Shown in pieces: positions 1 to 43,405 of a stretch of 43,405 nt of DNA (its first letter is position 1; each line of letters begins with the position of its first letter). The notes beneath the pieces are model-generated. The model searched no databases and was not told where the DNA came from. It saw nothing but the letters and a program-made list of their open reading frames with translations. The stretch is from IMG/VR virus record IMGVR_UViG_2563366824_000007; one strand, 5' to 3'. A program made the translations under genes and the position numbers. The stretch is from a virus (lineage: Duplodnaviria > Heunggongvirae > Uroviricota > Caudoviricetes).

Positions 1-933
1 ATGGACAACGACAAAATTGATCAACACAGCGACGAAATTGAAGTTGAGAGCGAAGAAAAAGAGCGCGGCAAAAAAATAGAAATAGATGAAGACCGACTCC
101 CCTCCCGGGCGATGGCAATTCATGAGCATATCCGCCAGGATGGTGAAAAAGAGCTGGAACGCGACGCAATGGCACTACTGTGGTCAGCCATTGCGGCGGG
201 TCTGTCGATGGGCGCTTCATTACTGGCAAAAGGGATATTTCATGTAGAACTGGAAGGCGTGCCGGGCAGCTTCTTGCTGGAGAATCTCGGTTATACCTTT
301 GGTTTTATTATCGTCATTATGGCCCGCCAGCAATTATTTACCGAAAACACCGTGACTGCGGTACTACCCGTCATGCAAAAACCGACAATGAGCAACGTTG
401 GCTTACTTATGCGGTTATGGGGCGTCGTGCTGCTGGGTAATATTCTCGGGACAGGTATTGCGGCGTGGGCATTTGAATATATGCCAATCTTCAATGAAGA
501 AACTCGCGATGCATTTGTCAAAATCGGCATGGATGTGATGAAGAACACCCCCAGCGAGATGTTTGCCAACGCGATCATTTCCGGCTGGCTGATCGCCACT
601 ATGGTATGGATGTTTCCTGCAGCGGGTGCGGCAAAGATTGTGGTGATTATATTGATGACCTGGCTTATTGCACTGGGTGACACCACTCACATCGTTGTCG
701 GTTCTGTAGAAATCCTCTATCTGGTGTTTAACGGCACGCTGCACTGGAGCGATTTCATCTGGCCCTTCGCACTACCTACTTTAGCGGGGAACATCTGCGG
801 CGGCACCTTTATCTTCGCGTTAATGAGTCATGCACAGATTCGTAACGACATGAGCAACAAGCGCAAAGCAGAAGCACGCCAAAAAGCAGAACGTGCGGAA
901 AACATTAAGAAAAATGATAAAAACCCGGCATAA
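1..933 (+). CDS. yfdC: Inner-membrane protein YfdC (formate/nitrite transporter family)
   Basis: 310-aa ORF starting at window base 1; hydrophobic multi-TM sequence recognised as the gene that flanks argW in E. coli K-12-type chromosomes. Confidence 0.85.
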   Translation: MDNDKIDQHSDEIEVESEEKERGKKIEIDEDRLPSRAMAIHEHIRQDGEKELERDAMALLWSAIAAGLSMGASLLAKGIFHVELEGVPGSFLLENLGYTFGFIIVIMARQQLFTENTVTAVLPVMQKPTMSNVGLLMRLWGVVLLGNILGTGIAAWAFEYMPIFNEETRDAFVKIGMDVMKNTPSEMFANAIISGWLIATMVWMFPAAGAAKIVVIILMTWLIALGDTTHIVVGSVEILYLVFNGTLHWSDFIWPFALPTLAGNICGGTFIFALMSHAQIRNDMSNKRKAEARQKAERAENIKKNDKNPA

Positions 934-1008
934 ATGGCGAGGGTTTAAGCAATCGAGCGGCAGCGTACTTACCCCGCAGTCCATTAGCGGGTATACTCAT
1001 GCCGCATT

Positions 1009-1083
1009 GTCCTCTTAGTTAAATGGATATAACGAGCCCCTCCTAAGGGCTAATTGCAGGTTCGATTCCTGCAGGGGACACCA
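1009..1083 (+). tRNA. argW: tRNA-Arg (anticodon CCU)
   Basis: 75-nt sequence GTCCTCTTAGTTAAATGG...GGTTCGATTCCTGCAGGGGACACCA; CCT anticodon in the CTCCTAA loop, T-arm GGTTCGATTCC, encoded CCA end. Confidence 0.92.
1069..1083. repeat. attL core, 15-bp CTGCAGGGGACACCA (3' end of argW)
   Basis: Exact 15-mer repeated at 41702..41716; integrase gene lies immediately adjacent. Confidence 0.8.
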
Positions 1084-1244
1084 TTTATCAGTTCGCTCCC
1101 ATCCGTACCAGTCCGCAAAATCCCCTGAATATCAAGCCTTCCGTATATTCACGGTTCGTCATGGTTCGCGTCAGATCGTTGACAGCCGCACACCATGACG
1201 GGTAAAAAGTGGATAAAATAATTTTACCCACCGGATTTTTACCC

Positions 1245-2402
1245 ATGCTCACCGTTAAGCAGATTGAAGCAGCAAAGCCGAAAGAAAAACCATACCGCCT
1301 TCTCGATGGTAATGGCCTGTACCTTTATGTCCCTGTATCCGGGAAAAAGGTATGGCAGCTTCGCTACAAGATTGACGGTAAGGAGAAAATACTGACCGTC
1401 GGAAAATATCCGCTTATGACTTTGCAAGAGGCAAGGGATAAAGCATGGACTGCGAGGAAAGACATCTCGGTTGGCATCGATCCGGTAAAGGCGAAAAAGG
1501 CTTCGTCTAACAACAATTCCTTTAGTGCGATTTACAAGGAATGGTACGAGCATAAGAGGCAAGTCTGGTCAGCCGCCTATGCGACTGAACTTGCAAAAAT
1601 GTTTGATGACGACATTTTACCTATCATCGGCGGCCTTGAAATTCAGGATATTGAGCCGATGCAACTGCTGGAAGTAATCCGCAGATTTGAAGATCGCGGG
1701 GCAATGGAGCGAGCCAACAAAGCACGCAGAAGATGCGGCGAGGTTTTCCGTTACGCTATTGTCACCGGAAGGGCTAAATATAACCCGGCACCTGACCTTG
1801 CTGACGCCATGAAGGGATACCGCAAGAAGAACTTCCCGTTTTTACCTGCCGACCAGATCCCGGCATTCAACAAAGCACTTGCAACATTTTCAGGAAGTAT
1901 CGTATCTCTCATTGCGACCAAAGTTTTACGCTACACAGCACTAAGAACAAAAGAGCTTCGTTCCATGCAATGGAAGAACGTCGATTTTGAAAACAGGATT
2001 ATCACCATCGAGGCCAGTGTGATGAAGGGACGCAAGATTCATGTGGTTCCGATGTCGGACCAGGTTGTTGAACTTCTCACTACGCTAAGCTCCATCACTA
2101 AACCAGTATCAGAGTTTGTTTTTGCCGGGCGCAACGATAAGAAGAAGTCAATCTGCGAGAACGCGGTATTGCTTGTGATCAAACAAATCGGCTATGAGGG
2201 TCTGGAAAGCGGTCACGGATTCAGGCATGAATTCAGCACAATTATGAACGAGCACGAATGGCCTGCTGACGCTATTGAAGTGCAACTGGCACATGCCAAC
2301 GGCGGATCTGTGCGTGGTATTTACAACCATGCTCAGTATCTCGATAAGCGCAGAGAAATGATGCAGTGGTGGGCGGACTGGCTTGATGAAAAGGTGGAGT
2401 GA
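1245..2402 (+). CDS. intS: P4-type tyrosine integrase (IntS-like)
   Basis: N-terminal arm-binding region and C-terminal catalytic motifs (HGFRH ... Y); sits directly 3' of the tRNA; track ORF begins at GTG 1209, in-frame ATG at 1245 preferred. Confidence 0.9.
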   Translation: MLTVKQIEAAKPKEKPYRLLDGNGLYLYVPVSGKKVWQLRYKIDGKEKILTVGKYPLMTLQEARDKAWTARKDISVGIDPVKAKKASSNNNSFSAIYKEWYEHKRQVWSAAYATELAKMFDDDILPIIGGLEIQDIEPMQLLEVIRRFEDRGAMERANKARRRCGEVFRYAIVTGRAKYNPAPDLADAMKGYRKKNFPFLPADQIPAFNKALATFSGSIVSLIATKVLRYTALRTKELRSMQWKNVDFENRIITIEASVMKGRKIHVVPMSDQVVELLTTLSSITKPVSEFVFAGRNDKKKSICENAVLLVIKQIGYEGLESGHGFRHEFSTIMNEHEWPADAIEVQLAHANGGSVRGIYNHAQYLDKRREMMQWWADWLDEKVE

Positions 2403-2551
2403 CCCACCTTAAATACCGAAGAGCACAAAGCCTTGCAATCCAGTGCAAAGCTTTGCGTACCAGAGTTTTTCCTCATCAACTACCGCAAGTATCGATCGAT
2501 TGAGACTTGGATGATAGACTTCATGCCTTTCAGAACTCATTGATTAAATAA

Positions 2552-2914
2552 ATGTTAAATATATTTGCAAGGTACACCTCGATTGGTGTGCTGAACACAC
2601 TTATACACTGGGTGGTTTTTGGTGTATGTATCTATGCCGCGCATACCAATCAGGCTCTGGCAAACTTCGCAGGTTTCGTTGTGGCTGTGAGTTTTAGCTT
2701 CTTCGCGAATGCAAAATTCACATTCAAAGCATCAACTACAACGATGCGCTACATGTTATATGTCGGGTTCATGGGAACACTGAGTGCTACTGTTGGATGG
2801 GCTGCTGATAGATGCGCACTTCCTCCGATGATAACTCTTGTCACCTTCTCCGCCATCAGCCTGGTGTGCGGTTTCGTCTATTCAAAGTTCATTGTCTTTA
2901 GGGATGCGAAATGA
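2552..2914 (+). CDS. gtrA: GtrA-family bactoprenol-linked glucose translocase (flippase)
   Basis: 120-aa small 4-TM protein, first gene of a three-gene operon next to int; overlaps the next gene by 4 nt. Confidence 0.85.
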
Positions 2915-3828
2915 AAATTTCTTTAGTCGTTCCGGTCTTTAACGAAGAGGCCACGATACCTATTTTTTATAAAACCGTGCGCGAATTTGAAGGGCTTCAG
3001 CAGCATGAAGTCGAGATAGTCTTCATAAACGATGGCAGCAAAGACGCTACAGAATCAATTATCAACGAGCTTGCTGTTGCCGACCCGCTTGTGGTTTCGC
3101 TGTCGTTCACACGTAACTTCGGCAAAGAACCTGCCCTGTTCGCAGGTCTGGACCATGCTACCGGGGAGGCAATTATCCCGATTGACGTTGATCTGCAAGA
3201 CCCTATCGAAGTTATTCCTCACTTGATAGAGAAATGGCAGGCCGGTGCAGATATGGTTCTGGCTAAACGCTCTGACCGCTCCACTGACAGCAGGCTGAAG
3301 CGTAAATCTGCTGAGTGGTTCTATAAACTTCATAACAAAATCAGCACCCCTCAGATAGAAGAGAATGTTGGCGACTTCCGGCTCATGTCTCGCGAAGTAG
3401 TGGAAAACATTAAGCTCATGCCAGAACGAAACCTGTTTATGAAGGGTGTGCTGAGCTGGGTTGGTGGTCGAACCGAAGTCGTAGAATATGCGCGAGCAGA
3501 ACGCGTTGCAGGAAGCACAAAGTTCAATGGATGGAAGCTCTGGAACTTGGCGCTGGAAGGGATCACTAGCTTCTCAACATTCCCGCTGCGCATGTGGACC
3601 TATATTGGGTTATTTATTGCATGTATATCATTTACATACGGTTCATGGATGATAATTGATAAATTAATTTTTGGTAATAATGTACCTGGATACCCTTCAA
3701 TTCTTGTATCAATATTATTTCTTGGCGGCATCCAGTTAATTGGTATTGGAGTGCTAGGTGAGTACATAGGGCGTATCTACGTTGAGGTTAAGCAGCGTCC
3801 AAAGTATATATTAAAGGATAATAAATAA
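2911..3828 (+). CDS. gtrB: GtrB-family bactoprenol glucosyltransferase (GT2)
   Basis: 305 aa with GT2-like N-terminal region (VVPVFNEE ... DGSKD ... DVDLQDP) and two C-terminal TM helices; stop overlaps the gtrC ATG. Confidence 0.9.
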
Positions 3829-5285
3829 TGATTTTCAAAAAACAAATTAAATTTATATTCGTAATTTTATTATTTGCGTCATTATTTATGCTATATCACT
3901 TTGCCAGCTTAAACATATTCCCACCAAATACAGATGCGGCAACAGTGCTTTTGCTTGGTAAGGATATGTCAGAAGGTAATTACTTACTTCATGGATGGAT
4001 GCTATCCACGGTTCCTTTTTACTTTACAGAAGTATCTTTTTATGCGATCGCCTCTATATTATTTGGCTACAGCAGTGAGCTTGCATATATAATACCACCA
4101 GCGATGTATGCTACTGTGATATTTTTGATATACAGGCTGTCTACAAATAAATCATTAGCATTAGCGCTAATTATATTCTACTTTGTTTTTCCTGCTGACA
4201 TGGCTGTTACATCAATGCTTTCAGCGTGCATTCACATGGGTACATACATATTTATCATTGGATGCTTAATATTTACAGAAAAGTATATTAAAACAGAAAA
4301 AATATTATTTGTATACTTTTCAACCATACTGTCCTCTATGGCTATTTTTAGCGATAATATCTCAGTCTATATATACGTTGCACCGCTAACATTAGCAGCA
4401 ATGTTTTTGTTGCACAAGGAAAGAAAAAAGAAATACCTTATTATAATGGCTGGATTGTTTTCTTCATATTTAATTTCCAAGGCGATCGGTTTTTTGTTTT
4501 TAAACCTTGGAAGCTTTACATTGCCAGGACTAACAGATGTAAAGATTGTTGAGTATGACAATATTTTAGTTAATATAAATACCGCAGTAAGTGGAACTTT
4601 ATTGTTTTTTAATGCAGACATATTTGGTGAGCAGATAACACCATCACTGCATCTATTATCTAAAGCAATACGCTTTGCTGGTGTTGTTGCATTAATTTAC
4701 TTCACTTTCAGAAATCTTTTTAAAAACAGAAGCGTTATTGATATATGTTTGTCATTGTCTATTTTAATCATGACATCTGCTTATATTGGTAGTAACCTCC
4801 CAAGAAATATATGGACAATAAGATACCTTGTTCCCGTCTTCATTATGGCAGTAATTCTTTTGTCAAGATCTAAATTTAATAAAAAAAGCATTATTTTATT
4901 AATAGCTTTTTTGGGCATCATATCAGGAATTAAAACAATAAATATTAATGGCTCCACTGATAATAGATACAATCAGATATCATGTATTAGAGAAAAAATC
5001 AACGAGCACAAAGTGAATTATGGATATGCCCCTTTTGCATTTACCAACTCTGTTGGTGTGAATGGAGACATAAAAATAGCAAATATACTTTTTGATAACA
5101 ATGAAATTAAAAGAGACAACTGGCTTACAAATAGCGAATGGTATAACAAAGGAAATAATTTCTTTATTCTTGAGAATAAAGAACAATTGAATATTGTGAA
5201 GAAAATTTATGGTCAACCTGAAGATATTGAAAGTGTGTGTGATGTGATTTTTGTCAAATACAGAAACCACATTTACGTCAAATAA
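3828..5285 (+). CDS. GtrC-type serotype-specific O-antigen glucosyltransferase (specificity unknown)
   Basis: 485-aa polytopic membrane protein in the third position of the gtr operon; AT-rich relative to flanking genes; translationally coupled to gtrB. Confidence 0.65.
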   Translation: MIFKKQIKFIFVILLFASLFMLYHFASLNIFPPNTDAATVLLLGKDMSEGNYLLHGWMLSTVPFYFTEVSFYAIASILFGYSSELAYIIPPAMYATVIFLIYRLSTNKSLALALIIFYFVFPADMAVTSMLSACIHMGTYIFIIGCLIFTEKYIKTEKILFVYFSTILSSMAIFSDNISVYIYVAPLTLAAMFLLHKERKKKYLIIMAGLFSSYLISKAIGFLFLNLGSFTLPGLTDVKIVEYDNILVNINTAVSGTLLFFNADIFGEQITPSLHLLSKAIRFAGVVALIYFTFRNLFKNRSVIDICLSLSILIMTSAYIGSNLPRNIWTIRYLVPVFIMAVILLSRSKFNKKSIILLIAFLGIISGIKTININGSTDNRYNQISCIREKINEHKVNYGYAPFAFTNSVGVNGDIKIANILFDNNEIKRDNWLTNSEWYNKGNNFFILENKEQLNIVKKIYGQPEDIESVCDVIFVKYRNHIYVK

Positions 5286-9613: not shown

Positions 9614-10692
9614 CAGAACGGGTCCTCCTGTACTCTGGCTTTTTTCTTTTTCCGCGCGCTGGGGGCTTCGGGTTCAGGCAGATAAGCATCAGGTGGGCCG
9701 ACACGGATTTCCGTCAGGGTGCCGTTCTGGTCCTGAGTAAACGTGACTTCCGAAACAAGCAGTTCGGTATTGTCGAAACCACAGACCGGATCAAAGACAA
9801 TCACCCGCTGGTTGGGCTGCCACAGCGTACCGTTACCCTGTCGCCAACCCTGCACCACATAGGTGGTTTCATCCGTCCGCGCCGCCCGTTGTCGGGCTTC
9901 AAAGTCCGCACGGGCAATACAGCCTGCCCCCGTAGCCTGCCCTGTCTGCCTGATATACATCGGACGGTAACGGGCAATAAATGCGTCCTCTGTGCGGGCC
10001 CGCAGCGCGGTGGTGGTGGCCTCACCGAAATCATCGTCGTTTCCGGCACGCTGCCCCGCCACCTGGTAAACAGAAAACCGCTCCCGGATACTCTTCTCCG
10101 TATCACAGGAAAGGATGTTTTCCCCAAGTACCAGCGCGGTATGTGCCCGCGTTGAGCCAATACCACCAATCACCAGCCTGCCGTGCGGGTCGTCATAAGC
10201 CAGCGCCTGCTGCTGACCGAGTATTTTGTTGATCACCTCAATCACCGTTTCACCGTGATCAGGCTGGACATCCGGAATAACACCCGACGGCGCATCGCTG
10301 TTCACCACCTCAATGCCGAAAGGCGCAGCAAGCGCCTGCGCAATCTGTACCAGCGATCGTCCGTTAAACTGTGTCGGTTCGGCTGCACAGTCAATCAGGT
10401 CAGCAGTCAGACTACGTCCGGCAATACCGGTGCTGACCGAACGGGCATCGTAACGAACGGGGGTCGCCTCCACCCAGCCGGTGATCACCAGCTCATCACC
10501 AATCAGCACTTCCACTTTTGAACCATTTTTAATGCGCGGCTGAAGCGTGGTGATACCCTCATCTCCCGGCCACTGGCGGGTGATCTCCACACTGAAATCC
10601 CGCGCCAGCCGTTCAATACCGGCACCGATGCGCACCGATGTCCAGCCATTCCACTCCCGGCCATTTACCCGTAGCGTGACATTGTCGTTCAT
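9613..10692 (-). CDS. Baseplate hub / tail protein (Mu gp44 P-like, gpD-like)
   Basis: 359 aa; synteny downstream of the DNA circulation gene. Confidence 0.7.
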   Translation of the reverse strand: MNDNVTLRVNGREWNGWTSVRIGAGIERLARDFSVEITRQWPGDEGITTLQPRIKNGSKVEVLIGDELVITGWVEATPVRYDARSVSTGIAGRSLTADLIDCAAEPTQFNGRSLVQIAQALAAPFGIEVVNSDAPSGVIPDVQPDHGETVIEVINKILGQQQALAYDDPHGRLVIGGIGSTRAHTALVLGENILSCDTEKSIRERFSVYQVAGQRAGNDDDFGEATTTALRARTEDAFIARYRPMYIRQTGQATGAGCIARADFEARQRAARTDETTYVVQGWRQGNGTLWQPNQRVIVFDPVCGFDNTELLVSEVTFTQDQNGTLTEIRVGPPDAYLPEPEAPSARKKKKARVQEDPF

Positions 10693-12017
10693 TGCACTGG
10701 CACCTTCAGAGGGATCACCGGCACAAAGCCGGGATGCGTAATGGCATTACGCCGGATAATGTCCGCGTCACGCGCCGCGTTATCAAACCAGGTCGCCGCC
10801 AGCACCAGTGCGGGTAAAACCTCATCCGGTGTGCGCTGAATGATCCGTGCAGACTGTTCAAGGCGCGTGTTGATATCCGCATTCAGATCTGCTTTCACCC
10901 GGCGCAGCGCCAGAAACAGCGCATCGCTGGTTGTACGGGACAACTCCTTATCAATTGCCGTATTCAGTATGTCGCGAATGTCAGTCAGTTCTTCCCACGT
11001 CGGCAGGTCAACCGTGTTTTTCACCGCCGGTGCATTGTTCAGTGCCGAATGCGTGACGGAAGGCCAGCCACTGCTCTGCGCGGGTGTTGTTGTCTGCCCC
11101 ACTGCGGAATTCTGCATCACCGCGAAAGTTGTTGGCGCAGGCAATCGGGTAACGGCATACGCCGCTTCGCTGATTGCGGTCGTACGAAGAGTGCTGGCAA
11201 CCACGTTACGCTGCTGCGTCGCCGTGGCGGTGGTTTTACTGTCCGTTTTCCAGACGCCGCGCGGTTGCAGATCGCTGCCGAGGCTGACACCGGAAAGCGT
11301 TTTGATCATGGTGACCAGGTCGCTGGCGTTACCATAAAGGCGTTTCCCGGTACGCCACATTTTCTGCACCTGCTCAACGAAATTTTTGCCTGACGATGGC
11401 GGCGGCAGAAGTACCGAGATATCCCCCTGCAACAGCCTGGCGGCATCCGATACGGCAGAATCCACCACTTTCATCGCATCAGAAACATACCCCAGCATTA
11501 TGCTGGCATTACCGATAACGTCGTTCTGCACGAAATCCGCCACACCATCGATACTGAAACCGCTGAAGCTGTCACTGATGCAGTCATCCAGTGCAGAACA
11601 GGATGACATCAGCGTCTGCGCCGTCGCCGCACCTGATGTGGGGTAAGAGAGTTCTCCTGCTTCGACAAACTTCAGGTCAAAGCGGACAATACGCCCTTCA
11701 CTCTTCGATGTGCTGACCCGAACCTCTCCGTCAACACAGACTTTCAGCTCACCGTAAGTCGGATGGACAAGCGTGCCGGGACCGGGTTTATTCAGCGCGT
11801 CAATCAGGCGATCGCGCTGGTCAAAGCAGTCATCTCCCACCACATAAGCCGTGATGGACGGGCGGAAAGTGATTTTCCCCAGGTCTTCGGTATAGGGTTT
11901 GTCGCGGTTCGGGTATTCGTGCGTTTCCACACGACGACCGGTTCCCGCACTTTCTTCTTCAACCTTAAACGGCACGCCGCGAAATGACGCGCCCTGAAGT
12001 CTGTCTTTCCACGTCAT
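10689..12017 (-). CDS. DNA circulation protein (Mu gp43 N-like)
   Basis: Track ORF starts at 12059, but its first 14 codons translate a terminator hairpin; in-frame ATG at 12017 (MTWKDRLQGASF...) preferred. Confidence 0.75.
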   Translation of the reverse strand: MTWKDRLQGASFRGVPFKVEEESAGTGRRVETHEYPNRDKPYTEDLGKITFRPSITAYVVGDDCFDQRDRLIDALNKPGPGTLVHPTYGELKVCVDGEVRVSTSKSEGRIVRFDLKFVEAGELSYPTSGAATAQTLMSSCSALDDCISDSFSGFSIDGVADFVQNDVIGNASIMLGYVSDAMKVVDSAVSDAARLLQGDISVLLPPPSSGKNFVEQVQKMWRTGKRLYGNASDLVTMIKTLSGVSLGSDLQPRGVWKTDSKTTATATQQRNVVASTLRTTAISEAAYAVTRLPAPTTFAVMQNSAVGQTTTPAQSSGWPSVTHSALNNAPAVKNTVDLPTWEELTDIRDILNTAIDKELSRTTSDALFLALRRVKADLNADINTRLEQSARIIQRTPDEVLPALVLAATWFDNAARDADIIRRNAITHPGFVPVIPLKVPVQ

Positions 12018-12030
12018 ATAAACTCCGGAT

Positions 12031-12053
12031 ATAAAAAAACCCGCCGAAGCGGG
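12031..12053 (-). terminator. Rho-independent terminator after the lipoprotein moron
   Basis: Minus-strand hairpin CCCGC-ttcg-GCGGG followed by a 7-T run, 18 nt downstream of the lipoprotein stop. Confidence 0.65.
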
Positions 12054-12070
12054 TTTCATTAAATTATCGC

Positions 12071-12748
12071 TTATCTAAAGTTACTTATTACCCGATACCT
12101 TATGCTTTGGTTACTCGCATCAAGTACTTCGAATTTAGCCCCTTTATAGCCAATTGTTTTAGACTCCGCGAGATCATACTCAACATCGTTGTTGAAGGCC
12201 GGGCGTGCTGTATTCGATGAAAATTCACGATATCCAATGTTGATTTTGTTTCCGACCCTTCCGTTGTAAAGCAGAGCTTGCTGGAAAGATGAATCACCAC
12301 TGATATTCAGAGTAACCTTTTCGATAGGCATGTTAGTTTCACAGTTGGTAACACCGAAAACTGTTATTACACATAAGGCATTCTTTTTCTTTTCTACCAT
12401 GATGCCCTGCCACATATCGGCAAGGGCTGCCTTTTCCACATTGGCTGAATCAGCACCGTTTGTGAGAAAGTAATAATCAGCCTTGTTATCCTCACCAACC
12501 TTTTTCAGCATCCCCGGAGTGATCGTATACGCCCAGGAAATTCTCGCAGGAGCATTAACCTTCAGACCTTCAAACCTCTGTGACACCCCCTGCTTAATCA
12601 TTGAATCACCGACATAAGCTGTATTAATGCTTCCTACAGGAGGTTCACTATAATTTTCTGTTTTTGGTAAATAATTGTACTTCGGAGAGGTACATCCCCC
12701 GAGTAAAAGAGCCATGCCGACAACTGAATAAATTGTTAAGACTTTCAT
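12071..12748 (-). CDS. Lipoprotein of unknown function (moron in tail module)
   Basis: Start at ATG 12748 gives MKVLTIYSVVGMALLLGGC..., a signal peptide with lipobox LLGGC; AT-rich relative to neighbouring tail genes; has its own terminator. Confidence 0.7.
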   Translation of the reverse strand: MKVLTIYSVVGMALLLGGCTSPKYNYLPKTENYSEPPVGSINTAYVGDSMIKQGVSQRFEGLKVNAPARISWAYTITPGMLKKVGEDNKADYYFLTNGADSANVEKAALADMWQGIMVEKKKNALCVITVFGVTNCETNMPIEKVTLNISGDSSFQQALLYNGRVGNKINIGYREFSSNTARPAFNNDVEYDLAESKTIGYKGAKFEVLDASNQSIRYRVISNFR

Positions 12749-12829
12749 ATCCCTATTCCCATCATTAAAGTATCGGACTAATCCTACCAAGAACCTGCTA
12801 AACGACAAAACCCGTGTTTAAGCGGGGTA

Positions 12830-14671
12830 TCAGCCCCCCATACCAAATCGGGTGTAGCCAACGTCGTGATTCACGTCGATACCGCTGGATCGCGTTTCCA
12901 TAACCCGCATACCCGGAGGCGAATTCACAAAAGAGACCTTGATCTCACCGTCAACTTTTGGCGCAGAAGCTTTGTTAATCATGAAGGGATTCGGGCCTGT
13001 GGCATCGGAGGCGTTGTTTGCCTGAGCCGGATCCATGGCCGGATAAGGTGTGTATCCCCGCGCCGGGAATCCCGTCCCATAAGCATCATAAGCACCCGCG
13101 CCCCACTGCGCAGAGTTAATGGCATCGACCGTGTCACCGGAACTGTCGGTAAACCACTCAATAATTGGCTTCAGCTTGTCCCACATATCCTGAAACCACT
13201 TAACAACCGGTCCCCAGTTATTGATTACCATCCCCAGCGGCGACCAGGCAAAAACCTTCTTCAGAAGTTCCCAGCCAGCCTCAAAATAAGGACCAATGGT
13301 TTCCCAGAGCTTCTTGAAATAAGGTCCGACAACATCCCAGTTAGTGATAATTAATCCCGCAGCCAGGGCTATCGCCGTCGCAATCATTCCAATCGGCGTC
13401 ATCGACATGATCCTGCTGACAATACTGATGGCCCCGCCAACGCCCATCAATCCCAGTTTCAGAATCGCAAGACCGGCAGCAAGCCCGACGACGCCGCGAA
13501 TAACCCGGGGATTTTCATCCGCAAACTTCGTGAATTTTTCCCCTAACTCCCCCAGCCATTGCGTGATATTTTTGGCGTCACCAGAAAATGCGCCGCCAAT
13601 AGCCGCAAGGCCGTTAGTTGCGGTCCCCGTCATTGCCTCCCACAGGTTGGACAGCGTACCAAGCTGGGCCTGAACACGTTTATTCAGGCTGGCCTGTTTA
13701 TTCATCTTCTGCTGGATCTGATCGTAGCCATCCTTTCCTTTATCGATTAGTGCATTGACCACCTGAAGGGTTTCGGCATCATCACCAAATATTGCCTTAA
13801 GTACACCTGTTCGCTTAACGTCGGTCAGTTTTCGCAGCTTTGCCAGTTGCCTGAACATGTTATCAAGACCGCCAAAACTTCCTTTGCCGTCAGTAAAATC
13901 GAGCTGTACCCCGAGTTTCTGGCGGGCCATGACTTTATTGACGTCCCTGATTTTCTTAACGCTTAATCCGGACTGGATAACTTTTCGCAGGGCATTACCT
14001 GCCGACTCCCCGTTCATCCCCATCTGATCCATCATGACGCTGATGGGGGCAAGGCTCTGTGCAGCCTGAAGACCCTCCTTGTTCACCATCTTCAGAACAG
14101 AACTGGTTTTAGTGAAGAAGGACAACATGTTGGTATCGTCAACGCCCAGATAAAACGCCTTCTGGATAGTGTCGAACAGCCCCATCATGTCTTCTGACGC
14201 CGTTCCGGTAGCATCCTGCATCTTTGCAGCAAACTCAGCAGCCGCTTCCGGTGTTTTTTTCAGTTGTACCGCAAGATAAGCTGTCGCTTTACCCACACCA
14301 CCCAGAATGTTTTCTGCCGGGATCCCCTGACGCACCAGCATCTGCATCATGTTCTGGAAATCAGCCGTTGTACCGGGTAGCTGGTTACCCAGACCAATAG
14401 CCAGTTTATTGATGTCCTGAAAGCTCTTTCCAACCTCGCCGTTCGCATCCATCATGGCGACTTTCAGCCCGGTGGCGGCGTTTTCCTGATCGGCATAAGA
14501 TTTCAGGGAAAGCGTCAGACCCGCAGCCAGTCCGCCACCAAGCGCCAGCCCACCCTGTGACGCTTCTTCCGCCTGGCGTTTAAATCCCCGGATTTTCTTT
14601 TGCATTTTCGACAGCGCGGGAGAAAGCCTGTCGACACCGGTGATCAACGCCTTAAGCTCAAATTCAGCCAT
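12830..14671 (-). CDS. Tail tape measure protein
   Basis: 613 aa, Ala/Gly-rich with helical N-terminus and hydrophobic central segment; downstream of the chaperone frameshift pair. Confidence 0.85.
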   Translation of the reverse strand: MAEFELKALITGVDRLSPALSKMQKKIRGFKRQAEEASQGGLALGGGLAAGLTLSLKSYADQENAATGLKVAMMDANGEVGKSFQDINKLAIGLGNQLPGTTADFQNMMQMLVRQGIPAENILGGVGKATAYLAVQLKKTPEAAAEFAAKMQDATGTASEDMMGLFDTIQKAFYLGVDDTNMLSFFTKTSSVLKMVNKEGLQAAQSLAPISVMMDQMGMNGESAGNALRKVIQSGLSVKKIRDVNKVMARQKLGVQLDFTDGKGSFGGLDNMFRQLAKLRKLTDVKRTGVLKAIFGDDAETLQVVNALIDKGKDGYDQIQQKMNKQASLNKRVQAQLGTLSNLWEAMTGTATNGLAAIGGAFSGDAKNITQWLGELGEKFTKFADENPRVIRGVVGLAAGLAILKLGLMGVGGAISIVSRIMSMTPIGMIATAIALAAGLIITNWDVVGPYFKKLWETIGPYFEAGWELLKKVFAWSPLGMVINNWGPVVKWFQDMWDKLKPIIEWFTDSSGDTVDAINSAQWGAGAYDAYGTGFPARGYTPYPAMDPAQANNASDATGPNPFMINKASAPKVDGEIKVSFVNSPPGMRVMETRSSGIDVNHDVGYTRFGMGG

Positions 14672-17096: not shown

Positions 17097-18913
<1,817 letters not shown>

Positions 18914-29583: not shown

Positions 29584-30543
29584 TTAATTTACCATCAGTC
29601 TTAGAGCCAGTTCGTCCGGATAGGGATCGAAGTAATTCTGTGTAAGCAAGTAATCATTAGGATACTCACCCAGATAATGCTTCAGCAGAGTCAACGGCGC
29701 AAGAAGAGGTAATGTGCCAGAACGATAGTTAAGTATAACCTCGCTCAACTCTTTACGCTGGCGTGTACTTAAGTAGTTACTAAAATACCCCTGTATATGC
29801 ATCAGCACATTCGTGTGATTTTTACGTGATGCAGGTTTTCTGAGAATCGCCATCAGCTTATCACGATACACCTCAAAGTATGATTCAAGGTCCGCCCACT
29901 CGTGTATTGCAGCCACAAATGGTCCCATATCTTTATAGCCTGCCTGACTATGCGCCAACAACTGAAGCTTATAACGACTATGAAAAGCTAATAACTCTCT
30001 TCTTGATAATTTCTCCTTGTAAAGGTGATTGAGCTCATGCAAAGCAAAAACTCTTTCAACAAAATTCTCACGAAGCACTGGATCATGTAATCGCCCATCC
30101 TCTTCAACCGGTAGCCAGGAAAACTTTTCCATCAAAGTACTCGTAAATAGTCCCACTCCATCTTTACGACCTCGATTACCATTTTCATCATAGACACGCA
30201 CGCGCTCCATGCCACAGCTGGGAGATTTAGCACAAACCACAACCCCCGATACATCCTTTAATTTGTCCATATAAGAACGACTAAACTCTGTCATTCTCTC
30301 TGTCACATCCTCATTCTGGTCGTGGCTGAAACACATCCGTATATTTCCTTGCGTCGAGCGCACAAGACGTAGAGCAGGACGCGGAACTGGCAGCCCTATA
30401 GCCATTTCCGGACATACTGGTCTGAATGTTACCCATTCCACTAATTTGTCCATTAAAAAGTCAGCTCTTTTGTGACCACCATCAAAACGAACAGCAGAAC
30501 CGGCCAAACAACCGCTGATTCCAATCACAGGTTTTTTTATCAT
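29584..30543 (-). CDS. DUF523 (TudS-like) - DUF1722 (YbgA-like) fusion protein
   Basis: 319 aa; N-terminal Cys-containing motifs (GISGCL ... CPE ... CAKSPSCG) consistent with a TudS-type Fe-S domain, YbgA-like C-terminal half; GGGGGAG ribosome-binding site. Confidence 0.65.
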   Translation of the reverse strand: MIKKPVIGISGCLAGSAVRFDGGHKRADFLMDKLVEWVTFRPVCPEMAIGLPVPRPALRLVRSTQGNIRMCFSHDQNEDVTERMTEFSRSYMDKLKDVSGVVVCAKSPSCGMERVRVYDENGNRGRKDGVGLFTSTLMEKFSWLPVEEDGRLHDPVLRENFVERVFALHELNHLYKEKLSRRELLAFHSRYKLQLLAHSQAGYKDMGPFVAAIHEWADLESYFEVYRDKLMAILRKPASRKNHTNVLMHIQGYFSNYLSTRQRKELSEVILNYRSGTLPLLAPLTLLKHYLGEYPNDYLLTQNYFDPYPDELALRLMVN

Positions 30544-30735
30544 ATTCTCCCCCTTGACTAATTCATTAACACATAAACTGTGTAGTGCACGGAATAAATT
30601 GCCTTTCTGGCGTCATCACTGACAATTTTTCTGTTATGGACTATTCCTAATATAGTATGAAAGTTCTTTAAGTGATCGGTCGTAATCATCTATCTTTCAT
30701 ACTTACTCTCAACTATCAAAAGTACAGGATTTATT

Positions 30736-31260
30736 ATGAAGTTATGGCCTGTGTTGACTGGCATTGCACTCTCTTTCACTCTTATAGCATGTAAGGCCCC
30801 GACACCACCTAAAGGTGTGCAGCCGATTACAAATTTTGACGCCAACCGCTACCTCGGAAAATGGTATGAAATAGCTCGCCTCGAGAACCGGTTCGAACGT
30901 GATCTGGAACAGGTCAGCGCTACTTATGGAAAACGGAACGACGGAGGGATTCGTGTACTTAACCGTGGATACGATCCAACGAAAAATAAATGGAGCGAGA
31001 GCGAAGGTAAAGCATACTTTACTGGAGATACTAAAACTGCAGCATTGAAGGTTTCGTTTTTTGGCCCCTTCTATGGTGGCTATAATGTAATCAAACTGGA
31101 TGATGAGTATAAGTATGCTCTTGTCAGTGGTCCGAACAGAGAATACCTATGGATTCTGGCAAGGACCCCAACTATTCCAGATAAAGTAAAAGCAGACTAT
31201 GTGCGAACCGCTCAAAAGTTGGGATTCAATGTCAATGAATTATTATGGGTTAAACAATAA
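30736..31260 (+). CDS. blc: Outer-membrane lipocalin Blc paralog
   Basis: 174 aa; lipoprotein signal (LIAC) and lipocalin motifs (NFDANRYLGKWYEIARLENRFER ... FFGPFYGGYNVI ... YLWILAR) closely resembling E. coli Blc. Confidence 0.85.
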   Translation: MKLWPVLTGIALSFTLIACKAPTPPKGVQPITNFDANRYLGKWYEIARLENRFERDLEQVSATYGKRNDGGIRVLNRGYDPTKNKWSESEGKAYFTGDTKTAALKVSFFGPFYGGYNVIKLDDEYKYALVSGPNREYLWILARTPTIPDKVKADYVRTAQKLGFNVNELLWVKQ

Positions 31261-42157: not shown

Positions 42158-43405
42158 CTATATTGCTGAAGGTACAGGCGTTTCCATAACTATTTGCTCG
42201 CGTTTTTTACTCAAGAAGAAAATGCCAAATAGCAACATCAGGCAGACAATACCCGAAATTGCGAAGAAAACTGTCTGGTAGCCTGCGTGGTCAAAGAGTA
42301 TCCCAGTCGGCGTTGAAAGCAGCACAATCCCAAGCGAACTGGCAATTTGAAAACCAATCAGAAAGATCGTCGACGACAGGCGCTTATCAAAGTTTGCCAC
42401 GCTGTATTTGAAGACGGATATGACACAAAGTGGAACCTCAATGGCATGTAACAGCTTCACTAATGAAATAATCCAGGGGTTAACGAACAACGCGCAGGAA
42501 AGGATACGCAACGCCATAATCACAACACCGATAAGTAATGCATTTTTTGGCCCTACCCGATTCACAAAGAAAGGAATAATCGCCATGCACAGCGCTTCGA
42601 GTACCACCTGGAATGAGTTGAGATAACCATACAGGCGCGTTCCTACATCGTGTGATTCGAATAAACCTGCATAAAAGACAGGAAAGAGTTGTTGATCAAA
42701 AATGTTATAGAAAGACCACGTCCCCACAATAAATATGACGAAAACCCAGAAGTTTCGATCCTTGAAAACTGCGATAAAATCCTCTTTTTTTACCCCTCCC
42801 GCATCCGCCGCTACACACTGGTGACCCTTATCTTTAAAACGCATGTTGATCATCATAAATACAGCGCCAAATAGCGAGACCAGCCAGAAGTTGATATGGG
42901 GACTGATACTAAAAAATATGCCGGCAAAGAACGCGCCAATAGCATAGCCAAAAGATCCCCAGGCGCGCGCTGTTCCATATTCGAAATGAAAATTTCGCGC
43001 CATTTTTTCAGTGAAGCTGTCAAGCAAACCACATCCCGCCAGATACCCCAGGCCAAAAAAGAGCGCCCCCAGAATTAGACCTACAGAAAAATTGCTTTGC
43101 AGTAACGGTTCATAAACGTAAATCATAAACGGTCCGGTCAAGACCAGAATGAAACTCATACACCAGATGAGCGGTTTCTTCAGACCGAGTTTATCCTGAA
43201 CGATGCCGTAGAACATCATAAATAGAATGCTGGTAAACTGGTTGACCGAATAAAGTGTACCTAATTCCGTCCCTGTTAATCCTAGATGTCCTTTCAGCCA
43301 AATAGCGTATAACGACCACCACAGCGACCAGGAAATAAAAAAGAGAAATGAGTAACTGGATGCAAAACGATAGTACGCATTTCTGAATGGAATATTCAGT
43401 GCCAT
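42158..43405 (-). CDS. cscB: Sucrose permease (LacY-family MFS oligosaccharide:H+ symporter)
   Basis: 415-aa 12-TM protein starting MALNIPFRNAYYRFASSYSFLFF...; ATG at the window end; csc genes are known to sit at the argW locus in some E. coli. Confidence 0.75.
   Translation of the reverse strand: MALNIPFRNAYYRFASSYSFLFFISWSLWWSLYAIWLKGHLGLTGTELGTLYSVNQFTSILFMMFYGIVQDKLGLKKPLIWCMSFILVLTGPFMIYVYEPLLQSNFSVGLILGALFFGLGYLAGCGLLDSFTEKMARNFHFEYGTARAWGSFGYAIGAFFAGIFFSISPHINFWLVSLFGAVFMMINMRFKDKGHQCVAADAGGVKKEDFIAVFKDRNFWVFVIFIVGTWSFYNIFDQQLFPVFYAGLFESHDVGTRLYGYLNSFQVVLEALCMAIIPFFVNRVGPKNALLIGVVIMALRILSCALFVNPWIISLVKLLHAIEVPLCVISVFKYSVANFDKRLSSTIFLIGFQIASSLGIVLLSTPTGILFDHAGYQTVFFAISGIVCLMLLFGIFFLSKKREQIVMETPVPSAI

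Follow-up and report, generated by a model that had tools for sequence, protein, structure and literature searches.

The window analysed here is the whole of a 43,405-nt viral DNA (IMG/VR record IMGVR_UViG_2563366824_000007; Duplodnaviria, Heunggongvirae, Uroviricota, Caudoviricetes). The element in question is a lipoprotein gene on its minus strand (positions 12071-12748), which is a single-gene cassette of about 0.76 kb inserted in the 60-nt spacer between two tail genes of an SfV/SfII-like prophage. The frame comprises 225 codons, from the ATG at 12748 to the TAA at 12073-12071. A 245-aa entry in the list of open reading frames (ORFs), starting at TTG 12808, is the same frame with an alternative start upstream, and the 225-aa form is named WP_000866660.1 in RefSeq. 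The assignment as a prolipoprotein coding sequence (CDS) is based on the translation of this frame, the RefSeq annotation of an identical locus, a match to PHROG 1353, an AlphaFold2 (AF2) model, and the ratio of nonsynonymous to synonymous substitution rates (dN/dS).

The 225-aa product begins with MKVLTIYSVVGMALLLGGC, a lipoprotein signal also noted in a preliminary description made from the sequence; it opens with positive charge, continues into a hydrophobic core, and then reaches the lipobox L-G-G-C. Signal peptide and lipobox occupy 12692-12748 of the minus strand, as read from the sequence and from the conservation of lipobox and Cys in the family. The lipidation signal LLGG|C19 is canonical, with the Cys19 codon at 12694-12692, Thr at position +2, and Ser at +3. 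The lipobox pattern of outer-membrane lipoproteins, [LVI][ASTVI][GAS]C, is represented here by MKVLTIYSVVGMALL-LGGC. In Enterobacteriaceae, Asp at +2 is the signal for inner-membrane retention in the Lol pathway, and the residue at this position is Thr, not Asp. Given the lipobox and the absence of a Lol-avoidance residue, the enterobacterial sorting rule points to the outer membrane, and the mature protein is predicted with high confidence to carry lipid on Cys19 and to reside at the periplasmic face of that membrane.

The GC content of the CDS is 41.6%. In 400-nt windows, it ranges from 0.395 to 0.448 over the gene versus 0.52 to 0.59 on either side (flanks about 55%), which agrees with the low GC noted earlier, and homologues in other hosts have 38-45% GC. 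The dN/dS is 0.12 against a relative of 95% identity and 0.06 against one of 88%, and the gene is under purifying selection. A pseudogene or junk DNA was accordingly dropped as a reading (dN/dS about 0.1). The possibility of a spanin or other lysis gene was also dropped, as a holin, a lysozyme, and an Rz-type 'lysis protein' are found elsewhere in the identical prophage according to its RefSeq annotation.

The lipoprotein gene lies in an 812-nt spacer (12018-12829), immediately downstream of the tape-measure protein gene (613 aa, 12830-14671, minus strand), which matches Pfam PhageMin_Tail and tape-measure PHROGs and is 97% identical to its counterparts in SfII, SfV, and SfI. On the other side lies a Mu gp43-like gene for DNA circularisation or the baseplate hub (442 aa, 10689-12017, minus strand), with matches to Pfam DNA_circ_N (E 2e-33) and to PHROG 184, the latter annotated as baseplate hub. 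The matches of both neighbours confirm the proposed location between the tape-measure and DNA circulation genes.

It was also proposed that these two genes are normally adjacent, and comparison with related prophages bears this out. In the Shigella phages SfII, SfV, and SfI, the flanks are 97% identical and 758 bp shorter exactly at the lipoprotein site, and an O157:H7 prophage has an empty site with a 60-nt spacer between the two tail genes (L005 2018-2077). The flanking tail genes were found in 1,094 of 5,426 complete E. coli genomes; the lipoprotein gene was found in only 53-54, always in this slot and as two alleles (at least 99% and about 94%), and is missing from about 95% of the related E. 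coli prophages. The contents of the slot were judged on an even 40-row sample of 1,102 matching records. The 60-nt spacer was empty in 19 rows, about half; two carried the lipoprotein gene, nine had one of two other cargos of about 0.6 kb, three had an oppositely oriented OB-fold gene, and the remaining seven shared the DNA-circularisation gene only. The first two alternative cargos are both AT-rich; the product of one has 164 aa and a signal peptide, that of the other 176 aa and a hydrophobic anchor at the N-terminus. The third cargo encodes a tRNA_anti-like OB-fold protein in the opposite orientation. The SfV-like slot therefore has at least four alternative contents, namely the lipoprotein gene and three other cargos (L006 2019-2702, L007 2018-2463, and L008 2018-2700). 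IS421 is annotated under the slot match in some genomes. In the sense of Juhala and Hendrix, a moron is recognised by extra DNA between normally adjacent genes, by deviant base composition, by a promoter and terminator of its own, and by expression from the repressed prophage; the first two features are present here, together with a flanking terminator, and the earlier classification as a moron-type insertion stands.

The intrinsic terminator (12033-12057, minus strand), detected by a terminator scan and RNA folding, consists of a 9-bp GC-rich stem (12057-12036), a UUCG loop, and a U7 tract. It starts 13 nt past the lipoprotein stop codon and ends 15 nt ahead of the DNA-circularisation start, and its RNA folds at -14.9 kcal/mol (z = -4.4), a value equalled by none of 200 shuffles. 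The preliminary description regarded it as the gene's own strong terminator. Its strength is evident, but a hairpin with a T-run stands directly before the ribosome-binding site (RBS) of the DNA-circularisation gene in all slot variants, the empty one included, so that it is not demonstrably the gene's own. The SfII authors annotated a putative terminator at this hairpin position, and similar hairpins occur 3′ of the lipoprotein gene in unrelated siphophage contexts.

The same hairpin affects the annotation of the next gene, as the preliminary description had correctly pointed out. In mechanical ORF calling, the DNA-circularisation ORF begins at ATG 12059 inside the hairpin and reads MKPASAGFFISGVY-MTWKD..., so that it carries a false 14-codon N-terminal extension (12018-12059, minus strand). 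The true ATG is at 12017, preceded by GGAG at 12026-12023; it is the start chosen in RefSeq, and the DNA_circ_N alignment begins at residue 7 of the shorter form. The GenBank record of SfII is over-extended too (SfII_17, 1,371 nt), with the SfII terminator annotated within the CDS (L186 1639-1677). The practical point is that both mechanical calling and this GenBank record place the start of the DNA-circularisation gene across a terminator.

Upstream of the lipoprotein gene, about 50 nt before the ATG travel with it, and the sequence farther upstream is unrelated between contexts. Within this segment, 14 distinct upstream regions from the myovirus and several siphovirus contexts (L013, L026, L027, L113, L116, and L119-L131) share an invariant TG-n-TAGGAT, placed 33-38 nt ahead of the ATG. 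The copy in the window, TGgTAGGAT (12781-12789, minus strand), lies 33 nt upstream of the ATG and resembles an extended -10 element. The extended -10 sequence is TGnTATAAT, a promoter class that needs no -35 box, and its critical A2 and T6 are kept in TGnTAGGAT. The motif may thus act as a weak extended -10 promoter with a predicted start near 12774, and independent transcription is suggested by its conservation rather than by a strong sigma-70 consensus. A Shine-Dalgarno-like TAGGG (12751-12755, minus strand) follows 3-7 nt before the ATG, where ATAGGGATATG is conserved in relatives. Directly past the tape-measure stop codon, a weak hairpin with a T-run (12807-12826, minus strand) folds no better than shuffles (z = 0.1). 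It aligns with AAACCCGCTTAACTGCGGGTTTTG, a better terminator-like hairpin upstream of the homologue in the Klebsiella siphophage L013, and is likely a decayed copy of this Klebsiella-type hairpin. The travelling unit is then likely composed of a hairpin, an extended -10 promoter, the gene, and a terminator, the classic layout of a moron. A conserved 5′-untranslated hairpin suspected by eye was not supported by RNAalifold, and a search of Rfam gave sub-threshold, terminator-driven matches only.

These signals would allow two modes of expression. In the lysogen, the gene would be transcribed from its own weak extended -10 promoter, and the terminator would keep this transcription out of the baseplate genes. 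In lambdoid phages, Q-antiterminated late transcription reads through such terminators; during lytic growth, it would pass through both the gene and the terminator, and the insertion need not, therefore, disturb the expression of the tail genes.

With regard to the protein, the only extensive match is to PHROG 1353, which is aligned end to end (E 1.5e-98, protein 1-225 versus profile 1-227 of 230). This family has no annotation ('unknown function'), and membership consequently gives no functional information. Pfam gave no match at E <= 1, NCBIfam a single chance match (17 bits, where the cut-off is 138), and the PDB sequences, searched with a profile, one chance match (E 0.5). The PHROG scan at E <= 1 returned, besides PHROG 1353, three weak families of unknown function and no tail PHROG, and 37 distant family members searched against Pfam gave incidental single matches only. 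The earlier statement that the protein belongs to no recognised family holds for annotated families but needs qualifying, as the protein falls into PHROG 1353 and into a family that counts some 3,000 clusters at the 50% identity level.

This family is very large. A word-indexed search collected 1,067 clusters at 90% identity, and an exhaustive profile search (E <= 1e-3) collected 3,019 clusters at 50% identity, nearly all of them single-domain proteins of about 225 aa. In data with one genome per species, hosts were found among Gamma-, Beta-, Alpha-, and Deltaproteobacteria, Nitrospirota, Planctomycetes, Gemmatimonadetes, Verrucomicrobia, Omnitrophica, and Bacteroidota, and every host phylum found is diderm. 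Members from E. coli, Vibrio, Geobacter, and Acinetobacter share 45-53% mutual identity. An alignment of 42 sequences (A1) has 41 invariant columns, including C19, C126, and C136, and a conserved block, SFQQ..Y.G.VG.KIN.GYRE.S...ARPAF.N.VEYD. In far more distant members, Y173 and E175 are invariant and R174, Y161, G163, Y191, D192, and Y201 nearly so. Among 250 full-length members, a lipobox is present in 234, never with Asp at +2, and the number of additional Cys residues is exactly two in 201.

The preliminary description had asked for a structure prediction. AF2 with the 42-sequence alignment gave a confident all-beta model of 18 strands (mean pLDDT 87.8, pTM 0.66), for which Foldseek found no match in PDB or BFVD at E < 0.01. 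The model begins with the signal helix and a tether of about ten residues; twelve of the strands lie no farther than residue 149 and the other six between residues 155 and 222. C126 and C136 are on adjacent strands (125-129 and 133-137) of one hairpin, a geometry that would fit a C126-C136 disulfide. The most conserved motif, ARPAFNN (181-187), lies between strands in blocks of lower confidence (pLDDT 75-78), a position in the model consistent with an exposed loop.

The gene is an autonomous mobile unit, carried by phages, an integrative and conjugative element (ICE), an integron, plasmids, and genomic islands. In IMG/VR, it is present on at least 193 viral contigs. No partner gene is conserved with it: when 1,251 neighbour ORFs from 78 genomes were clustered all against all, no cluster spanned more than 10 loci, the best recurring ones being an ABC ATPase (10 loci) and integrases (nine). 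Among the 143 immediate neighbours in these genomes, each listed Pfam family occurs once, with examples as diverse as aconitase, gyrase, methylases, and an integrase. In one Vibrio parahaemolyticus context, it resides in an array of short cassettes resembling a chromosomal integron; in an ICE, it belongs to a cargo region and adjoins a Shedu SduA gene; and in a Geobacter island, it is the first gene past the integrase, with a reverse-transcriptase/PRTase pair also aboard. On V. parahaemolyticus plasmid P2 (L018 5423-6654), the homologue overlaps the stop codon of a gene for a 185-aa outer-membrane beta-barrel (OMP_b-brl/OmpA-like), to which it is start/stop-coupled. This barrel is the only possibly coupled partner seen, and hints at a lipoprotein working with an outer-membrane barrel.

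In P2-like phages, a family branch with 27% identity occupies the hotspot flanked by replication gene A on one side and portal gene Q on the other, where it is the first gene past the replication region and is followed by a variable defence-type gene. The neighbour is an AIPR abortive-infection gene in Fels-2 (L001 4947-7643) and a reverse transcriptase in Klebsiella phage 4LV2017 (L187 4001-6936). The lipoprotein gene is incompletely annotated in 4LV2017 and in phage RE2010. The A/Q site of P2 has been documented as a hotspot of defence genes (PMC9519451).

A second recurrent location is the vicinity of tape-measure genes. For this comparison, 80 viral loci were retrieved, representing 17 lipoprotein clusters at 90% identity, 16 of them with enough flanking sequence. 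Eleven of these 16 lineages have an ORF of 450 or more codons on the same strand no farther than 2.5 kb away, in most cases no more than 700 nt downstream. The linked long ORFs form seven clusters below 40% identity, and five of the six representatives tested match tape-measure Pfam families, which are of three kinds (TMP_3; TMP_2/TMP_4/lambda-C; PhageMin_Tail). The gene precedes the tape-measure gene in a Klebsiella aerogenes prophage and follows it in a Providencia prophage, with an antirepressor and HicAB as cargo around, and in Acinetobacter Vieuvirus phages it likewise adjoins the tape-measure gene, with a DUF4258/HTH pair alongside. Under uniform placement in a 40-kb genome, the gene would, by a rough estimate, fall this near the tape measure about one time in eight. 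The excess is suggestive and not decisive, as morons are not uniformly placed and this slot takes other cargo.

As a kind of element, the moron is well known; the protein family and its tape-measure linkage are new. The first moron described, HK97 gene 15, lies between the tail chaperone and tape-measure genes (PMC3594210, summarising Cumby et al. 2012). Its product blocks genome entry with the receptor untouched, its specificity maps to the incoming tail, and most gp15 homologues are bacterial and not phage-borne (PMC3594210). The present gene is similarly a single GC-deviant moron in the tail operon beside the tape-measure gene, encoding an envelope protein whose homologues are mostly bacterial. 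However, gp15 belongs to the YebO family, which is confined to Enterobacteriaceae, and is a small protein of the inner membrane, whereas the lipoprotein is a 225-aa protein of outer-membrane type from an unrelated family found in many phyla.

The preliminary description instead drew a parallel with the receptor-blocking lipoproteins Cor and Llp, which fits poorly. Like Cor (phi80, N15, and HK022) and Llp (T5), the protein is a phage lipoprotein, here predicted for the outer membrane, encoded by an accessory gene in or near the tail cluster. Cor and Llp are proteins of about 8 kDa that inactivate FhuA and are linked genetically to receptor-binding genes. The present protein has no sequence relationship to them, is three times larger, is linked to tape-measure genes, and belongs to a family that extends far beyond FhuA-bearing bacteria. 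The family retains 45-50% identity between E. coli and carriers as distant as Geobacter, Acinetobacter, Nitrospirota, and Planctomycetes, which points to a target shared by diderm envelopes or on the phage side and away from an FhuA-like receptor, and a single-receptor block of the Cor/Llp style appears unlikely. With moderate to low confidence, the closer functional analogue may be HK97 gp15.

Two other comparisons are instructive. Ltp acts at DNA injection through the incoming tape-measure protein, a mechanism that would match the one proposed below. It is a prophage lipoprotein of Streptococcus phage TP-J34 reported to mediate superinfection exclusion (PMC3952083). In contrast to the present protein, Ltp comes from a Gram-positive host, is surface-exposed on the cytoplasmic membrane, is encoded in the lysogeny module and not next to the tape-measure gene, and is unrelated in sequence. 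Lambda Bor and plasmid TraT resemble the present case as lone outer-membrane lipoprotein genes on mobile elements with expression by the resident element, which is predicted here. In enterics, the roles known for these two are serum resistance and surface exclusion. Unlike them, the present protein has no Pfam match at E <= 1 and its family is mostly environmental.

On these grounds, the protein is tentatively proposed to be an outer-membrane-anchored exclusion factor that acts after adsorption and is not a receptor blocker of the Cor/Llp type; among the readings considered it is the preferred one, by analogy. With high confidence, the lipoprotein is predicted to be held at the outer membrane on its tether of about ten residues, as a two-part beta protein with one disulfide; more tentatively, it would act alone in the envelope to protect the lysogen and its mobile element from incoming phages. 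Working without a partner in the periplasm or at the outer membrane, it probably targets something that many diderms or many phages share. Most plausibly, it would hinder the tail tip, the tape-measure protein, or the DNA in crossing the periplasm or peptidoglycan, and the highly conserved surface formed by the probably exposed Y-R-E, ARPAFNN, and E-Y-D segments would serve as the interaction site. A role in phage protection is the best supported because the carriers are temperate phages and mobile elements; because the hotspots are shared with abortive-infection, reverse-transcriptase, Shedu, and toxin-antitoxin genes; because the adjoining gene encodes the protein that leads DNA across the envelope; and because HK97 gene 15, in the same position, blocks genome entry with a specificity determined by the tail.

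Several observations weigh against an exclusion factor. No family of the PADLOC v2 defence models matched the protein at E <= 10. Its identity with the 'lipoprotein' defence gene of Vassallo et al. (PMC9519451) was considered unlikely in view of this PADLOC result. PADLOC applied to the 143 immediate neighbours gave a few restriction/modification and candidate-system matches with no quantifiable enrichment; as the neighbours are mostly unrelated, include housekeeping genes, and count few defence genes, the association with defence is anecdotal and not statistical. Adjacency to the tape-measure gene may simply mark a site permissive for morons, as the slot holds three other cargos, and since a near-invariant protein stands beside unrelated tape-measure families, a specific lock-and-key pairing is disfavoured. 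A scan for two-hexamer sigma-70 promoters found none before the gene, and the consensus is weak; the sense orientation inside the late operon means that the protein is possibly made mainly in the lytic cycle. Searches of the literature for WP_000866660, STM2726, or phrog_1353, and for prophage lipoproteins in exclusion, returned nothing on this family. Overall, the preliminary interpretation is partly supported. The sequence outcome that it named as refuting, homology to a structural tail component, did not turn up, and the viable relatives SfII, SfV, and SfI lack the gene; the exclusion function rests on context and analogy.

A broader form of the proposal is that the family represents a new and widespread single-protein envelope immunity, with a fold that lacks a PDB counterpart, which blocks penetration of the peptidoglycan and periplasm by the tail tip and tape-measure protein. 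A shared entry step of this kind would explain the tape-measure linkage in unrelated phages. It is regarded as improbable in this strong form; if true, it would add a broad defence layer, after adsorption and before the cytoplasm, to the known repertoire.

A fitness or virulence factor of lysogenic conversion, which would change the envelope for the benefit of the host (serum or complement resistance, adhesion, or stress tolerance) like Bor and TraT and would not act on phages, is rather unlikely but accounts for several features. Bor and TraT are likewise lone lipoprotein genes on mobile elements, the same prophage bears other envelope-modifying cargo (gtrABC and the lipocalin), and many family members stand alone among ordinary chromosomal genes. 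Given the environmental homologues, a general envelope role is as plausible as phage defence. However, the lack of a Pfam match at E <= 1 places the protein outside the Bor and TraT families by sequence, and the free-living Geobacter, Nitrospirota, Planctomycetes, and marine carriers exclude a role specific to host animals for the family as a whole. This explanation also leaves the repeated placement at tape-measure genes and in the P2 hotspot unaccounted for.

The extreme conservation of the loops across phyla (GYREF, ARPAFNN, and VEYD) raises another candidate function, that of a periplasmic inhibitor or immunity protein against external wall-attacking enzymes, such as lysozymes, lytic transglycosylases, type VI amidase effectors, or bacteriocins, following the logic of MliC/PliC. 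Such conservation would suit a conserved active site or cell-wall material as the target, and the location of ARPAFNN between strands (pLDDT 75-78) is consistent with an exposed loop. A lone gene that needs no partner, one of whose members sits in a Vibrio cassette array, would also agree with an inhibitor. This is considered somewhat less probable than a conversion factor, and the two ideas of inhibition and phage exclusion overlap if the target enzyme is a phage tail lysin.

Less probable again is a helper of the lytic cycle, made late to stop progeny or late superinfecting phages from being wasted on the dying cell or its debris, as with T5 Llp. The sense orientation in the late tail operon, where Q-modified polymerase would read through, the weak promoter consensus, and the co-oriented position adjoining the tape-measure gene in most phages would all be expected of such a protein. 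On the other hand, the gene also occurs where there is no phage late transcription (integron cassette, ICE, islands, and isolated chromosomal positions), the conserved TGnTAGGAT and the flanking terminators indicate autonomous expression, and the close relatives SfII, SfV, and SfI manage without it. A structural or assembly part of the contractile tail (baseplate or tape-measure accessory), suggested by the position between two tail genes only, is effectively ruled out: the 97%-identical viable SfII, SfV, and SfI do not have the gene, about 95% of the related E. coli prophages lack it as well, the lipoprotein signal would export the product from the cytoplasm, where tails assemble, no homology to a tail component was found in Pfam or PHROG, and the gene is also present in siphoviruses, P2-like phages, ICEs, and integrons.

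Prophage morons are a main source of phage-exclusion and host-conversion functions, and most of them are unannotated. The present family stands out by its size, its conservation across phyla, the absence of a relative in Pfam, defence models, or solved structures, its cassette behaviour, and its proximity to tape-measure genes above uniform placement. Should it prove to be an entry blocker, it would be a portable one-gene barrier relevant to host range in phage therapy (E. coli, Klebsiella, and Acinetobacter prophage carriers) and would give access to a poorly understood part of genome delivery, its periplasmic stage. With another function, it would still be a new lipoprotein family deserving a Pfam entry.

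The carrier is annotated at an identical locus in E. coli PS_131_S11 as a prophage at tRNA-Arg (argW) with IntS and gtrA/gtrB plus a third gene. Its modules include a Q antiterminator, HK97-type head genes, and a Mu-type contractile tail, and its tail genes are 97% identical to those of the Shigella serotype-converting phages SfII, SfV, and SfI. It is an SfV/SfII-like lambdoid phage with a Mu-like tail and not a Mu-like phage, so the label 'Mu-like' in the preliminary description applies to the tail and not to the phage overall. At the attachment end (window 1-5285) are yfdC, tRNA-Arg, intS, gtrA, gtrB, and a 485-aa gene without a Pfam match in the position of gtrC, and this end marks it as an O-antigen-modifying (serotype-converting) phage of the SfII/SfV type. 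The prophage is also a full-length relative of the K-12 remnant CPS-53.

Within the window, an IS3-family element of 1,258 bp with a 3-bp target duplication (17334-18591; HTH_Tnp_1 and rve ORFs) is inserted inside the tail-terminator gene, and this prophage copy is probably unable to build tails, with its cargo genes intact. Apart from this element, the window is 99.98-100% identical to the PS_131_S11 prophage. More cargo is found between the Q antiterminator and the lysis genes (29584-31260), namely a lipocalin-family gene (30736-31260) on the strand opposite the late genes and a YbgA-like DUF1722/2-thiouracil-desulfurase gene (29584-30543). The far end of the window (42158-43405) holds a gene for a LacY-family sugar symporter (Pfam LacY_symp, E 7e-193).

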